16,756 bases of DNA from IMG/VR virus record IMGVR_UViG_2703719347_000008; one strand, 5' to 3'. Position 1 is the stretch's first letter; each line of letters opens with the position of its first letter. The position numbers were made by a program, and so were the translations under genes. This document shows, in pieces, positions 8,751 to 14,084 of this stretch. The notes under the pieces are model-generated. The model did not search any database, was not told the origin of the DNA, and saw only the letters and a list, made by a program, of their open reading frames with translations. Source of the DNA: a virus. Taxonomy: Duplodnaviria > Heunggongvirae > Uroviricota > Caudoviricetes.

Positions 8751-8781
8751 AAACCCGCCAATGAGCGGGTTTTTTTATTTT
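8751..8781. terminator. Bidirectional rho-independent terminator (tR'-like for Q side; also terminates the convergent minus-strand gene)
   Basis: Stem ACCCGC (8753-8758) / GCGGGT (8765-8770) with 6-nt loop, flanked by an A-rich run upstream and TTTTTTATTTT (8771-8781) downstream; lies between the two convergent genes. Confidence 0.65.
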
Positions 8782-9371
8782 ACTAACTGAGCAATCATTG
8801 ATTGATAAGCACAATAGGAACCATAAGCAAATATGAAGATGGAACCGGCGCCGCATATACAAGCTACAGCATTTATTGTATGCCCGAGCCAAAGATAAAA
8901 TTTTTTGGTTCCAAGATATGATGATGCGAAGCAGCACTGTGAGAAATAGGATAAGCCCGAACAAAGTCCGGCCAGAACGACTCCTCCACAGAAAAGATAG
9001 AGAGCTGATGCGATAGCAGACGCAGCTTCAGCTGAGGAATTCTTGTTCCAAATATTTCCTAAAAAAGCCAACAGAGCGATTGCTGCACCTCCATTCATTA
9101 TTAGAAATGTTCTGCAAGCATTCGCACCAATACTGATAGCAGCTTTGAAAGACTCTATTTGAAAGCTATTTTCAATTTTCATTATTTCCAATTGGGTGGA
9201 GTTTTGATGTTTAATCCCTTCGAGAGTTAAAGCATTAGCCTCTGGCTGCTCTGTCACATCTATTTCTGAAAGATAGTGAAGTAAATTATCGACCGGGATG
9301 GTTTCTGAACCTTGTTGCTTTACATCACTTACATCTTTTTTGATCAATTCCAAAAGTTCTGAACTGGTCAT
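8775..9371 (-). CDS. Hypothetical membrane protein (N-terminal soluble domain, about 3 C-terminal TM helices); AT-rich moron
   Basis: ATG at 9371 preceded by GGAGCAAGAA (track's 9440 start is TTG with no Shine-Dalgarno); C-terminal hydrophobic stretches IALLAFLGNIW, ASALYLFCGGVVLAGL, AVACICGAGSIFIFAYG; about 35-40% GC by spot count of one 60-nt line against 55-60% in neighbours; antisense to the late transcript. Confidence 0.6.
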   Translation of the reverse strand: MTSSELLELIKKDVSDVKQQGSETIPVDNLLHYLSEIDVTEQPEANALTLEGIKHQNSTQLEIMKIENSFQIESFKAAISIGANACRTFLIMNGGAAIALLAFLGNIWNKNSSAEAASAIASALYLFCGGVVLAGLCSGLSYFSQCCFASSYLGTKKFYLWLGHTINAVACICGAGSIFIFAYGSYCAYQSMIAQLVK

Positions 9372-9500
9372 TTCTTGCTCCAGTGTTAAATCGAACGTAA
9401 AGATCCTAAGTATACCCTTAGAAGTACATACGGTATTCAAGTAAATAGAATTTATCTTTCCCCTCGATTGAGAGGACTCACAGCAAAAAGAGGGGGCTAA

Positions 9501-10794: not shown

Positions 10795-11103
10795 ATGCAA
10801 CTGAAAATATGTGTGGTCGCTTTTGCGCTTCTTCTTTCTGCGTGTGATGCCAGCCCTGAACCTGCCAAATCGACTATGGCTGTATCATCCCAACTTTCTG
10901 CAGATGCAGACCGGATTAGCGTGACAAAAATGTCTGAGTTCCGCGATGGGCTTGCATATGGAAATTGGCGGGGTGTTTATCTCATTCAGGATAAGCAGAC
11001 CGGACAGGAATACATCGGTATCAGCGGTATTGGGATTTCCGAGGTAGGTTCGCATAGCCAGATGGTTGGCAAGGTTCCGCAATCAGTAAGGGATGAACGA
11101 TGA
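10795..11103 (+). CDS. Lipoprotein of unknown function in the lysis cassette (predicted inner-membrane retained)
   Basis: Signal peptide MQLKICVVAFALLLSAC with canonical lipobox L-S-A-C and Asp at +2 (CDAS); start is 2 nt after the endolysin stop; ATGA overlap with the next gene. Confidence 0.6.
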   Translation: MQLKICVVAFALLLSACDASPEPAKSTMAVSSQLSADADRISVTKMSEFRDGLAYGNWRGVYLIQDKQTGQEYIGISGIGISEVGSHSQMVGKVPQSVRDER

Positions 11104-11375
11104 GCTTAGAAATTATTGCTGGGCTGGTGGTCGTAATCCTGGGCACTATCGCTGGTGCATTCGGCATTGGTCACGCTCGCGGGACCAATAAGGCGGAAGC
11201 CAAAGCCGATCAGCAACGTACCGAAGAAAACGCCGCCGCCACCATCGCCGCGGCAGAACGTAAGGCGGAAGTTGTGAAAGGGGCCAGTAATGTACAGCAG
11301 ACTGTTAGCCATATGCCTGATGACGATGTTGATCGGGAGCTGCGCGAAAAGTTTACCCGCCCCGGTAGTCGTTGA
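11100..11375 (+). CDS. i-spanin-like protein (Rz-like; N-terminal TM plus charged periplasmic helix)
   Basis: N-terminal TM LEIIAGLVVVILGTIAGAFGIG followed by Ala/Lys/Glu-rich segment; 3' end overlapped in +1 frame by a lipoprotein gene, the classic Rz/Rz1 arrangement. Only 91 aa, shorter than typical Rz. Confidence 0.5.
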   Translation: MSLEIIAGLVVVILGTIAGAFGIGHARGTNKAEAKADQQRTEENAAATIAAAERKAEVVKGASNVQQTVSHMPDDDVDRELREKFTRPGSR

Positions 11376-11508
11376 TACGGCCTGCAGCTGGGTTCGCATT
11401 ATCTACCTGACCGACCACGATATCGACGTGCTGGATAGGCAGACCAAGCGCGACATTCTAACCCACAACAGAACAGTTAAAAGAAACTGTAACCAACTAA
11501 AAATGTGA
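11290..11508 (+). CDS. o-spanin-like outer-membrane lipoprotein (Rz1-like)
   Basis: Signal peptide with lipobox LIGSC followed by Ala at +2 (outer-membrane sorting), Pro-containing mature region with Cys residues; overlaps the i-spanin-like gene out of frame; AAAGGGG Shine-Dalgarno. Confidence 0.45.
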   Translation: MYSRLLAICLMTMLIGSCAKSLPAPVVVDTACSWVRIIYLTDHDIDVLDRQTKRDILTHNRTVKRNCNQLKM

Positions 11509-11520
11509 CGCAAGTCCCAA

Positions 11521-11597
11521 TTATCCATTGCGTTGCTAAGTGTTACAAAATCCATTGAATTATGATGTGTGTTTACACTCACATAGCAATGGATATT
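11521..11597. promoter_or_regulatory. Repeat-flanked promoter region of the AT-rich four-gene cassette
   Basis: TTATCCATTGC (11521-11531), ATCCATTGA (11550-11558) and inverted copy GCAATGGATAT (11587-11597) bracket candidate -35/-10 elements (TTTACA 11572-11577, 17-bp spacer, ATTTAT 11595-11600) immediately before the first cassette gene. Confidence 0.35.
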
Positions 11598-11598
11598 T

Positions 11599-12213
11599 AT
11601 GGCTACTTACAAATATTATAATATACAGATGCTACCTCTAACCAATAGTAAAAAACATATTGGTAAAGAGGGTTATATTAAATTATTCCAGCATCTGGGA
11701 GACAAACTTCGCAAAGTTTTGTCATCGGAAGGTGATTTAAGAAATATCGCTGTTCCATTGAGGAATGATTTCTTTTTTGCTCCGTATGAAATAAATGCTA
11801 GAGAGGACATGGTTTATGGTCGTTTTTTAAAGTTTGACAAGGTAGATGTTGTTAGAAAAACTATTAGCAGAGTTCAGACTTATGCAGCTGGTTTTGGCGA
11901 GTCTAGTAAGATTTATGAGTATAGGTTTGTATTTGATCCTGTATTGCATATCCTTGCTATCGAAGATAGCCCTTCATTACCTAGCGCAAGTGTTTTATAT
12001 AAGGTGCTTAATGAGGTGTTTAAAGATGCGCGCAGGAAATTATATCCATCCTTTCGCATGAGTGTTGATGAATTAACATCTTCTGCTAGTCTAGATAATG
12101 TTATAAAAGAGTCTAAAGGATATTATTCCTTTAAAACAGAAATAACTTTCTCTAACTCTAATGATTTTATTGAAGGACTAGAAGAATTGCTAGAGGGGTT
12201 GAGGCTGAAATGA
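11599..12213 (+). CDS. Hypothetical cytoplasmic protein (204 aa), cassette gene A
   Basis: AT-rich ORF (about 28-30% GC by spot count of one 60-nt line); no Walker, HEPN, nuclease or HTH motif recognisable; stop overlaps the start of gene B (ATGA). Confidence 0.6.
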   Translation: MATYKYYNIQMLPLTNSKKHIGKEGYIKLFQHLGDKLRKVLSSEGDLRNIAVPLRNDFFFAPYEINAREDMVYGRFLKFDKVDVVRKTISRVQTYAAGFGESSKIYEYRFVFDPVLHILAIEDSPSLPSASVLYKVLNEVFKDARRKLYPSFRMSVDELTSSASLDNVIKESKGYYSFKTEITFSNSNDFIEGLEELLEGLRLK

Positions 12214-12533
12214 AAGATAAAGGGATTGATAAGCTGGAGCATAAAGAGTCATCAGACAAAGACTCAATAATGACTGACGTTAGTACAATCGCGTTGGTTT
12301 ATGCAGGTTTATCATGCAAGTTTGGGAATACTGAAATATCTTATAAAGACAAAAGCAATAAGAAAAAAGTTTTCAAAATGGCCGATTATCCTGTAAGAAA
12401 ACGTGTGTCTGAGTCTATGAAAAAAAGGGCATCAATTTTAGACTATTATTATGATGTGAAAAACACAATTAATGCAGCTAATAATGAGTCCAGAACAGGA
12501 AGTGGATTGCTAAAGAAAATTAGAAAAGGATAG
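12210..12533 (+). CDS. Hypothetical Lys-rich small protein (107 aa), cassette gene B
   Basis: GAGG Shine-Dalgarno; translationally coupled to genes A and C (1-nt gap to C); one short hydrophobic segment TIALVYAGLSCKF. Confidence 0.55.
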   Translation: MKDKGIDKLEHKESSDKDSIMTDVSTIALVYAGLSCKFGNTEISYKDKSNKKKVFKMADYPVRKRVSESMKKRASILDYYYDVKNTINAANNESRTGSGLLKKIRKG

Positions 12534-12534
12534 T

Positions 12535-13164
12535 ATGATGAAAGTTGGTGGATGGGACATTAATCATGAGAATATACTTAAAATAATTAAGTCTATTCCA
12601 TATGTTGGTGCAATTTTTATCATTGCCAACTTTTATGCTAATTCTGGAGTTTTATCAGAAAGGAAGCGAATTGCAAATTTCAAAAATTGGGTGCGGAGGG
12701 TACTTTCTGGTGTTTTATTTACTTTTGTTTTAAGTTTGTTGATTGTGACATTTTTCAGAGATGGGCTTTACAATCCCAACTCAAACACTGCAGGTCTCGA
12801 CGCAACCCTTGTTGCTTTATCCATATTTCCGAGCATATTAGGTTTTGGCATTGGTGTGTTTGTTGTTGTTTTTGCCCTTCCGAATCAATTCATTGAGAAA
12901 ATAAATCTTATCAAACATAACGGTAAAAATAAAACATTTGGCGCATCGTTAATGGTTGTCGATATGGCTTATCCTCTAATGGTATATGCTGTTGTCCTGA
13001 TGGGTGAGTTTTTTCTGAAACTATTCCAGGTTGGGTTTATTACACATGTGTTGAGTATCTTTTTATTATTATATGGAATGCTGATGACTTTTGATTTAAT
13101 ATCTATGATTTTCATGACAGCGTATGCGCTTTTAGCTACGCAAGCATCAAGAAACCCTAAATAG
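12535..13164 (+). CDS. Hypothetical polytopic membrane protein (about 5 TM), cassette gene C
   Basis: AAAGGA Shine-Dalgarno; five long hydrophobic segments, e.g. VLSGVLFTFVLSLLIVTFF and ITHVLSIFLLLYGMLMTFDLISMIF; no known motif. Confidence 0.65.
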   Translation: MMKVGGWDINHENILKIIKSIPYVGAIFIIANFYANSGVLSERKRIANFKNWVRRVLSGVLFTFVLSLLIVTFFRDGLYNPNSNTAGLDATLVALSIFPSILGFGIGVFVVVFALPNQFIEKINLIKHNGKNKTFGASLMVVDMAYPLMVYAVVLMGEFFLKLFQVGFITHVLSIFLLLYGMLMTFDLISMIFMTAYALLATQASRNPK

Positions 13165-13297
13165 TAGTATTTTTAGTTCGTTCTTTGGCTCAATGATTTT
13201 GTCGATACAGCAGCCAAGTTCGATAACTAAAGTAATCAATAGAGAATCTTTGCAGTGTGTCAATAAAACGTAGGAAAGGTAAGTTAAGGCACTGCAG

Positions 13298-13733
13298 TAT
13301 GCAAATACTGGTTGTTTGTGATATGTTTAACTACTTGCACACAATCAGGTCGTTAAATATGGGCGAATATATAAGCGCTACTATTACTGGATTATGGGAA
13401 TGCTATTTGTCATGGTCCAAACAGAATCGAGAGCTAACATTATCCAAGTTGGAAGCGCTATCAAATTTATTGATAGATAATCGGGCCTACCTGAGGGATT
13501 TCGCACACCAAGGTGTTAAAGACGCTCAAAGGGAACTTGAACTTGCAAAGGAGTGGAGGCGTGTCGGTCTCTTGTTTCAAGATATTTCTCCTGAGTTGTC
13601 AGACATATGTGAGAAGAAATCAGACTACTGGATATATTCAGAACGATATACCAAGCAGAAAGTTAATGAGCTAGGGATAACAATAAGAAATCTCGAACAT
13701 AAGCTAAGAATGGCAAAGAAAAACCTTCTATAG
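13298..13733 (+). CDS. Hypothetical helical protein (145 aa), cassette gene D
   Basis: Same strand and AT-rich composition as A-C; ATG at 13298 preferred (AAGG upstream) over the track's GTG at 13257; followed by a strong terminator. Start uncertain. Confidence 0.5.
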
Positions 13734-13752
13734 AATCCCTTTGTAATTTATG

Positions 13753-13784
13753 AAAGCCACCTTTTAAACGGTGGCTTTTTTATT
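13753..13784 (+). terminator. Rho-independent terminator closing the AT-rich cassette
   Basis: Stem AGCCACC (13755-13761) / GGTGGCT (13770-13776) with 8-nt loop followed by TTTTTTATT. Confidence 0.7.
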
Positions 13785-13793
13785 GGAGTGAAT

Positions 13794-14084
13794 ATGGCGT
13801 CAAGTTCACCCTGGCATCATCTCTATAACACTAAACGGTGGTACCGGCTGCGTTATCACCAGCTTCAGAAGCAACCACTCTGCGAGTTTCACCTCAGGCG
13901 AAATCAGGTGATATCCGCAACCGTTGTTGATCACATCAAACCTCACAAGGGCGATGAAACCCTCTTCCACGACCCGAACAATCTTCAGTCGCTATGCAAG
14001 CGCTGCCACGACTCGGTTAAACAACGCATGGAGAAGGGCGGAACGGTTACCGAGTTCGACAATGAAGGCAGGGTTATCTGGTAA
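13794..14084 (+). CDS. HNH endonuclease (terminase-associated)
   Basis: ATG at 13794 with GGAG 6 nt upstream; motifs CEFHL...VDHIKPHKGD...NLQSLCKRCHDSVK are the HNH Cys/His pattern; located just upstream of small and large terminase genes as in HK97-like phages. Confidence 0.8.
   Translation: MASSSPWHHLYNTKRWYRLRYHQLQKQPLCEFHLRRNQVISATVVDHIKPHKGDETLFHDPNNLQSLCKRCHDSVKQRMEKGGTVTEFDNEGRVIW

Follow-up and report, generated by a model that had tools for sequence, protein, structure and literature searches.

RexAB-type systems, which pair a cytoplasmic sensor with a membrane effector, have been validated by experiment for lambda, actinophages and Pseudomonas putida. Just five RexAB-like systems are on record so far according to a 2026 paper (PMC12894663). 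The protein family DUF4747 has been tied to lambda RexA, Sbash gp30, CarolAnn gp44 and Butters gp30, each of which is paired with a protein of four transmembrane (4-TM) helices (PMC6426596, PMC6426606, PMC7542560), and a 2026 survey includes a 'DUF4747/CarolAnn prophage system' among immune operons (PMC13373217). In the case of RexABpp from the P. putida prophage P1 (PP_5643/PP_5644), both genes are needed for defence and the sensor triggers a partner-dependent growth arrest and membrane leakage; that system was assigned to the RexAB type on the same kind of evidence as is presented here and was then validated (PMC12894663). Here we analyse a stretch of 16,756 nucleotides of viral DNA (Caudoviricetes; IMG/VR record IMGVR_UViG_2703719347_000008), referred to as the window, which carries between its lysis and packaging genes a DUF4747 gene that is broken into two open reading frames (ORFs), A and B, followed by gene C for a membrane protein. 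We consider it quite likely that positions 11478-13281 are a two-gene, AT-rich module of the RexAB type, inserted between the outer spanin (o-spanin) gene and a pre-existing gene D, and that the sensor has been inactivated in this copy.

Four ORFs, A to D, had been proposed for this region in a first-pass annotation made from the letters of the window, and all four are present on the plus strand where it had placed them. ORF A (11599-12213) encodes 204 amino acids (aa) and ORF B (12210-12533) encodes 107 aa, of which 24 are lysine or arginine. When they were compared with the Pfam profile of DUF4747 (PF15931), A aligned with profile positions 1-184 of 257 (46.3 bits, E = 4.7e-12) and B with positions 191-255 (32.2 bits, E = 9.3e-8), and each of them separately scored above the curated gathering threshold of the hidden Markov model (HMM), 27 bits, by which membership was defined. 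The intact homologue P0001 covered positions 1-255 of the same profile (86.9 bits, E = 2e-24). Similarly, A covers positions 1-199 and B positions 202-298 of phrog_10040, which has 299 positions. A database search revealed one protein of 311 aa with 98% identity to the end-to-end fusion of A and B, relatives from Serratia and Enterobacter also have 311 aa (79-82% identity), and the 62 DUF4747 proteins obtained in a profile search are single chains of 302-337 aa except for two partial sequences. At the level of DNA, two contigs that are collinear with the window at about 98% identity (L001 and L002) possess a single ORF of 936 nucleotides (nt) in place of A and B, and alignment with them locates a one-base deletion in a run of four Gs (12195-12198, plus strand) that counts five Gs (G5) in the intact alleles. 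This missing G is the sole difference from the intact allele of Escherichia coli MRSN346595 over the 936-nt gene. In that strain the locus spans 1307661-1309472 of NZ_CP018109.1, and its genes are recorded as WP_042346295.1 and WP_042346292.1. A and B are the two halves of a single 311-aa DUF4747 gene. Codons 1-200 of ORF A are native, and because one G was lost from the G5 run its final four codons (LRLK) are out of frame and an early stop follows; ORF B starts at the natural internal Met205 of the gene. The first-pass annotation had considered A, B and C to be translationally coupled, and the ATGA overlap between A and B and the gap of 1 nt between the stop of B and the start of C do exist, but A and B are fragments of one gene and the apparent coupling at ATGA is a frameshift scar, arising because the shifted frame meets a TGA that overlaps the Met205 codon.

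An AlphaFold2 model of the intact 311-aa protein, obtained from an alignment of 60 sequences, reached a predicted local distance difference test score (pLDDT) of 84 and a predicted template modelling score (pTM) of 0.83. When this model was compared by Foldseek with the structures of the Protein Data Bank (PDB), lambda RexA (8TWQ) was the top match (E = 1.4e-6) and RdgC the second (E = 2.3e-6), and nothing beyond these two was found below 1e-2. Among predicted viral structures, the best matches were uncharacterised phage proteins of similar size, and phage RdgC-like proteins came next. A resemblance between RexA and RdgC is also reported in the RexA paper, which describes for RexA a split globular domain containing a sheet of seven strands, and an inserted dimerisation domain of four strands (PMC11077077). 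The model of the DUF4747 protein shows seven strands before residue 184, a linker of low confidence (residues 184-194), four strands with helices, and long C-terminal helices, so the predicted structure of the cytoplasmic component displays the split globular and dimerisation domains of the RexA fold. By element count, the frameshift at residue 201 would fall just after the hinge-like linker. The first-pass annotation had recognised no DNA-binding motif in any of the four proteins and had recommended structure prediction as a check; for A and B combined this check yielded the RexA/RdgC DNA-binding fold, by which the earlier statement is superseded. Single-sequence searches of the PDB with A, C and D gave nothing meaningful, profile searches of the PDB with the families of AB (the joined protein) and of D were empty or insignificant, and scans of A, B, C and D with the models of PADLOC and NCBIfam detected nothing significant, including any sensor-plus-membrane system in PADLOC.

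Gene C (12535-13164, plus strand; 208-209 aa) encodes the membrane partner and putative RexB-like effector. Its family (phrog_27113) comprises 118 clusters among 1.84 billion representative proteins, and no Pfam family matched it. Hydropathy analysis indicates hydrophobic segments at about residues 52-79, 90-120, 136-157 and 159-201, and an AlphaFold2 model from an alignment of only eight sequences (pLDDT 50), which was excluded from the fold search, places long helices at about residues 49-78, 90-126, 135-163 and 167-206, together with short N-terminal ones. C is better described by four long helices and a short N-terminal amphipathic part than by the five or so transmembrane helices counted earlier. 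As positive charge is concentrated ahead of helix 1 and in the loop that connects helices 2 and 3, a topology with both termini inside and a central cytoplasmic loop is suggested. A function of C as a holin was considered and rejected, the best holin match having an E value of 0.56. A C-family gene is located directly downstream of the DUF4747 gene in 32 of 32 complete loci, with gaps of -35 to +38 nt; these loci, some of which are redundant, are the window, 5 from protein look-ups, 5 from genomes and 21 from viral contigs. The small polytopic partner immediately downstream that characterises RexAB-type systems is therefore present, with a 4-TM topology as predicted from hydropathy and the low-confidence model. 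In a coarse sense, AB and C also diverge together: relatives with 80-83% identity in AB have 67-76% in C, and those with 33-40% in AB have 31-40% in C. The correlation between the two identities (r = 0.97) is driven by two identity clusters and r is about 0 within the distant set. The pairing of AB with C is strict.

Given the link made in the literature between DUF4747 and the Rex and CarolAnn proteins with their 4-TM partners, the module is therefore read as a sensor-effector pair of the RexAB type. As in lambda RexA/RexB, the sensor gene is immediately followed, on the same strand, by a gene for a small polytopic membrane protein, and the genes are accessory cargo borne by a prophage. However, there is no detectable sequence similarity to the lambda proteins (Pfam, PADLOC, hhalign), the sensor has 311 aa in its intact form as opposed to 279 aa for RexA, the partner has about 208 aa as opposed to 144 aa for RexB, the module occupies the lysis-packaging slot with its own upstream region whereas lambda rex is part of the cI operon, and the sensor gene of the window, unlike that of lambda, is frameshifted. 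RexABpp is likewise a two-gene operon in a prophage, but it is intact, functional and located near a CI-like repressor, and it can be likened to the window proteins by description only. In the actinophage systems (Sbash gp30/gp31, CarolAnn gp44/gp43 and Butters gp30/gp31) the cytoplasmic parts have been linked to DUF4747 by weak HHpred matches in the literature; these systems have 4-TM partners and provide heterotypic defence through expression from the prophage, and that of Sbash has its own promoter away from the repressor, as the window module seems to have. In contrast, CarolAnn gp44 and gp43 show neither a Pfam match nor hhalign similarity (<1%) to the window families, the hosts belong to different phyla, and the window protein, unlike CarolAnn gp44, is a genuine HMM-level member of DUF4747. 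RdgC (PDB 2OWL) differs in being a stand-alone housekeeping or phage recombination protein without a membrane partner, whereas the window protein is always paired with C, and the two share no sequence similarity.

Several observations weigh against the assignment to the RexAB type. Neither hhalign nor HMM searches linked the intact family to lambda RexA at the sequence level, and hhalign was also negative for the AB family against CarolAnn gp44 (probability <1%), the single-sequence template making this a weak test. The Pfam models PF15969 and PF15968 and the RexA and RexB models of PADLOC matched none of A, B, P0001 and C, and in a control the same models matched the lambda proteins with E values of 1e-97, 8.5e-92, 9e-110 and 8.6e-61. 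RdgC nearly equals RexA in Foldseek score for the intact protein, the low confidence of the C model (pLDDT 50) makes its fold and topology tentative, the module, unlike those of lambda, CarolAnn and P. putida, has no immunity repressor beside it, and our search of the literature found no experimental work on the enterobacterial and vibrio clade to which the window pair belongs. As profile comparison of C by hhalign was negative too, both with RexB and, in a test equally weakened by its single-sequence template, with CarolAnn gp43 (probability <1%), the link to Rex rests on fold and gene architecture and not on sequence. Even so, a soluble sensor and a membrane effector acting in abortive infection, as the first-pass annotation had suggested, is the best-supported reading of A plus B and C, in a system of two genes and not of four. 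The system cannot be called undescribed, because DUF4747 with a membrane partner has already been treated in the literature as RexAB/CarolAnn type; what is new is an enterobacterial and vibrio clade of such pairs that is missed by PADLOC.

By analogy with RexA, the intact 311-aa cytoplasmic protein would dimerise and bind DNA and might recognise DNA made by a phage or a protein-DNA intermediate. Once triggered, C, in the inner membrane, would permeabilise or depolarise that membrane, growth would stop and the superinfecting phage would be aborted. In the window, the sensor would be truncated after residue 200, with a second ORF starting from Met205 and an intact C. A RexAB-type system is expected to have an intact sensor gene, and here that gene carries the deletion in its G5 run; because the sensor gene is broken, the sensor is probably inactive and this copy of the module most likely does not function.

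The window allele is one of a series. Exact copies of the 204-aa and 107-aa products are found on 28 and 29 contigs, respectively, all labelled E. coli, and the same cluster at 90% identity contains at least eight other disrupted alleles. These include a form of 280 aa ending in KKRHQF (43 contigs), a form ending in KKGHQF, forms of 265 aa ending in KKKFSKWPIIL, one of 251 aa, and forms that restart at residues 21, 27, 33 or 41. In three loci the lesion was checked in the DNA: one G was lost from a run of three Gs (G3) following a run of seven As (A7) in L054, 13 nt were deleted across a run of six As (A6) in L053, and a C was lost after another A6 run in L032. These lesions, in E. coli and Klebsiella-type genomes, adjoin or fall within short homopolymer runs, and the positions concerned in the window, its own lesion included, are 12195-12198, 12358-12371 and 12421-12430. 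Gene C is intact in all three loci, its exact protein occurs on 401 contigs, and most of the listed C entries that are shorter carry the mark partial, being cut by contig ends. Among 5,426 complete E. coli genomes, 10 carry the module; one was checked and is intact, seven have the same match length and score, and two have different lesions. Clonal sampling bears on all these counts of contigs and genomes. What is firm is that separate lesions have arisen several times in the sensor gene, in E. coli and Klebsiella, and that C has been spared. As excess sensor alone triggers the effector in lambda and P. putida, according to the study of the latter system (PMC12894663), and supposing that the same applies here, a copy without sensor may be tolerated or even favoured. 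It is a tentative idea, and one to which we give little weight, that the sensor gene is a mutational hot spot, with recurrent lesions, several of which coincide with or adjoin A6, A7, G5 and G3 runs, and with C spared, possibly under selection against a costly or self-killing sensor or as a reversible on/off switch resembling phase variation, and that the window allele could even encode a functional sensor in two pieces, divided at the inter-domain hinge.

Taken by itself, a split sensor that still works would require that B be made by re-initiation at the ATGA and that A and B reassemble into an active system. The stop of A does overlap the natural ATG of Met205, the break follows just after the low-confidence linker (184-194) that separates the seven-stranded N-terminal part from the four-stranded part and C-terminal helices in the AlphaFold2 model, and by element count this position would resemble the boundary between globular and dimerisation domains of RexA as described in its paper (PMC11077077). 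The split allele also persists on 28-29 contigs, but the 28 contigs may come from one clone. Moreover, the break lies inside a predicted helix (195-208), no homologue from another species is naturally split at the A/B point, and the same gene carries lesions at unrelated positions (the 13-nt deletion, C-terminal truncations and N-terminal frameshifts), a pattern that resembles decay and not a designed split. A working two-piece sensor is for these reasons doubtful, and loss of the sensor is preferred.

The module is located in a slot between lysis and packaging genes, as had been proposed: Rz-like inner and outer spanin genes (11100-11508; phrog_1026 and phrog_1275) lie on one side, with two holin genes and a gene for a GH19 endolysin further upstream, and HNH, TerS and TerL genes lie on the other. 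The G+C content of the four-ORF cassette is low, 35.1% for 11509-13790 as opposed to 52.1% in the upstream and 53.7% in the downstream flank, and the median over lines of 60 nt is 0.35 in the cassette and 0.52 in the flanks; the contrast is real but weaker than the 28-30% against 55-60% of the first-pass annotation. BLAST comparison with phages that carry D without AB-C shows homology up to about 11470-11477, at the end of the o-spanin gene, and resuming at about 13282-13788. Because the flanks match these phages on both sides of 11478-13281, AB-C has been swapped in as a block beside a D gene that was already resident, and its horizontal acquisition as AT-rich accessory cargo in the lysis-to-packaging slot, which had been predicted, is supported. 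A Serratia chromosomal copy shares only 11544-13154 with the window, and the minimal mobile unit is therefore the upstream region and two genes.

The left junction and non-coding region upstream of AB-C span 11478-11598 (plus strand), with a conserved stretch at about 11533-11598. About 70 nt before the start codon are kept in the Serratia and Enterobacter copies, which have about 80% protein identity and lie in other contexts, and the region contains a -10-like hexamer, TATGAT (11561-11566), and, immediately preceding the start codon of A, an ATGGAT box. The repeats ATCCATTG, direct and inverted, from which a repeat-flanked promoter had been postulated, are present, but the promoter itself is unproven, as promoter-like sites were no commoner than in shuffled sequences (10 versus 9.4). 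A box of the form ATGGA(T/A/C) was also observed roughly 7-12 nt before the DUF4747 start in the window and in loci L009, L010, L037, L038, L040 and L048, even at 33-40% protein identity, and is probably a ribosome-binding region; in the window it is the right arm of the inverted repeat seen earlier.

The pair was found elsewhere both inside and outside prophages. A tblastn search with the intact protein against 50,697 GenBank phage records gave no match, and the viral contigs of IMG/VR contained 21 DUF4747-C loci. The pair occupies the same slot, from spanin to HNH/terminase genes, in an Enterobacter prophage, and it lies in a prophage-like region of Salinivibrio. In Halomonas it directly follows a GmrSD enzyme and a SNF2/PLD helicase, and in one Serratia it has been inserted with roxA-like genes on one side and phoPQ genes on the other. 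In another Serratia (L004) a PtuA-like PDC-M01A/B pair is located 0.6 kb downstream of the module, and an o-spanin fragment (L004:5759-5887; residues 25-67, 60% identity, E = 1e-16) is found directly upstream of the DUF4747 gene in an otherwise non-prophage context, so a decayed prophage that had the same spanin-DUF4747 junction is the probable origin of this module. By association, these contexts form the distribution expected of a mobile defence module.

Instead of defence, the module could serve the life cycle of the prophage, by biasing the switch between lysogeny and lytic growth, by modulating recombination as RdgC does or by tuning lysis. Such a role would be in line with the action of lambda RexA on the bistable switch independently of RexB, reported in the RexA paper (PMC11077077), with the closeness of RdgC and phage RdgC-like proteins as structural matches, and with the position of the module directly after the lysis cassette. 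However, the pair also occurs outside prophages, by GmrSD, SNF2/PLD helicase or PtuA-like genes or alone in core-genome contexts, the module is dispensable and swapped among otherwise collinear phages, its low G+C content and own upstream region mark it as a moron, and C has no significant holin match. A role confined to the prophage life cycle is accordingly judged improbable, and the RexAB-type reading is retained.

It is very unlikely that the gene is really intact and that its split into A and B arose from a homopolymer error in sequencing or assembly. The lesion does consist of one base in a G5 run, and one low-quality draft (L013) has both genes split, but the identical fragments recorded on 28 and 29 contigs stem from several sources and accessions, and the frameshift is therefore taken as a real allele. 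In L013 itself (Photobacterium sp. JCM 19050, draft), where the DUF4747 gene and the C gene are each split in two, a low-quality assembly is the more likely cause.

Gene D (13299-13733, plus strand) encodes a helical protein of 144 aa from its ATG, or of 158 aa from a GTG at 13257, with candidate starts at 13299, 13323 and 13359. It belongs to phrog_28881 and phrog_12412, both of unknown function, and gave no Pfam or PDB signal; a distant homologue in E. coli phages (25% identity) is unannotated and aligns only from about residue 25. D and the terminator that follows it constitute a mosaic block (13282-13788, plus strand) that is 89-95% identical to Klebsiella-type phages without AB-C. The first-pass annotation had proposed that co-occurrence of the four genes be examined in other genomes. 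D is present in 8 of the 32 AB-C loci, all of one lineage with at least 93% identity in AB, and is absent from the other 24, which include copies from Enterobacter, Serratia, Vibrionaceae, Halomonas and others, and 10 Klebsiella-type phages have D but no AB-C, with D again in the slot that separates lysis from terminase genes. D is a moron, an accessory gene that is independent of AB-C and unrelated to it. That A, B, C and D are one novel operon and an undescribed defence system, as originally put forward on the grounds that the four ORFs share strand and low G+C, and as eight closely related loci holding all four might suggest, can be dismissed as extremely improbable, since A and B are one gene, D is missing from most AB-C loci, is found without AB-C in 10 loci and belongs to a separate block with a breakpoint at about 13282, and the AB-C type is already in the literature. 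Although the exact D product occurs on 256 contigs, the gene is left entirely unannotated in RefSeq (PGAP) records for E. coli genomes with this region (L052-L054).

The terminator-like hairpin (AAAGCCACC / GGTGGCTTT) with its T-run (13752-13785, plus strand; stem-loop 13752-13779, inverted repeat I4) lies inside the D block. The strong terminator previously ascribed to the four-gene cassette does fold well (-16.4 kcal/mol, z = -3.5), but it belongs with D, and the stem-loop was not flagged by a rule-based terminator scan. It is located directly upstream of the HNH, TerS and TerL genes, within the late region, and Q-type antitermination presumably allows late transcription to pass it. A direct repeat of 10 nt, TAAACGGTGG, occurs in the hairpin (13765-13774) and again in the HNH gene (13832-13841).

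Two further ORFs of the window were observed in the vicinity of the lysis genes. A second AT-rich ORF (8775-9440, minus strand; G+C 0.39) lies between a Q-like antiterminator gene and the holin genes and encodes 221 aa from a TTG start; its C-terminal helices are hydrophobic, and neither Pfam nor PHROG gave a match. In relatives the same slot contains an ORF of 165 aa (L001) or a GhoS-like ORF of 95 aa (L005), and it looks like another variable site for accessory genes. Between the endolysin and inner spanin genes, an ORF of 102 aa (10795-11103; phrog_16585, function unknown) resembles a lipoprotein, with a signal peptide and the lipobox LLSAC, and an identical protein is named 'GIY-YIG nuclease family protein' in one RefSeq record, which looks like a mis-annotation.

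Two lessons for annotation follow from this locus, namely that an ATGA overlap of two short ORFs can be a frameshift scar and that adjoining AT-rich accessory genes need not make one system. The clade of DUF4747-membrane-partner pairs is common in prophages and near defence genes, and it escapes detection by PADLOC v2. From the intact allele, E. coli itself could gain a tractable Rex-type system, which could show how a sensor with the RexA fold activates a partner lacking homology to RexB. The independent losses of the sensor, with the effector kept, hint at a measurable fitness cost of Rex-type sensors.

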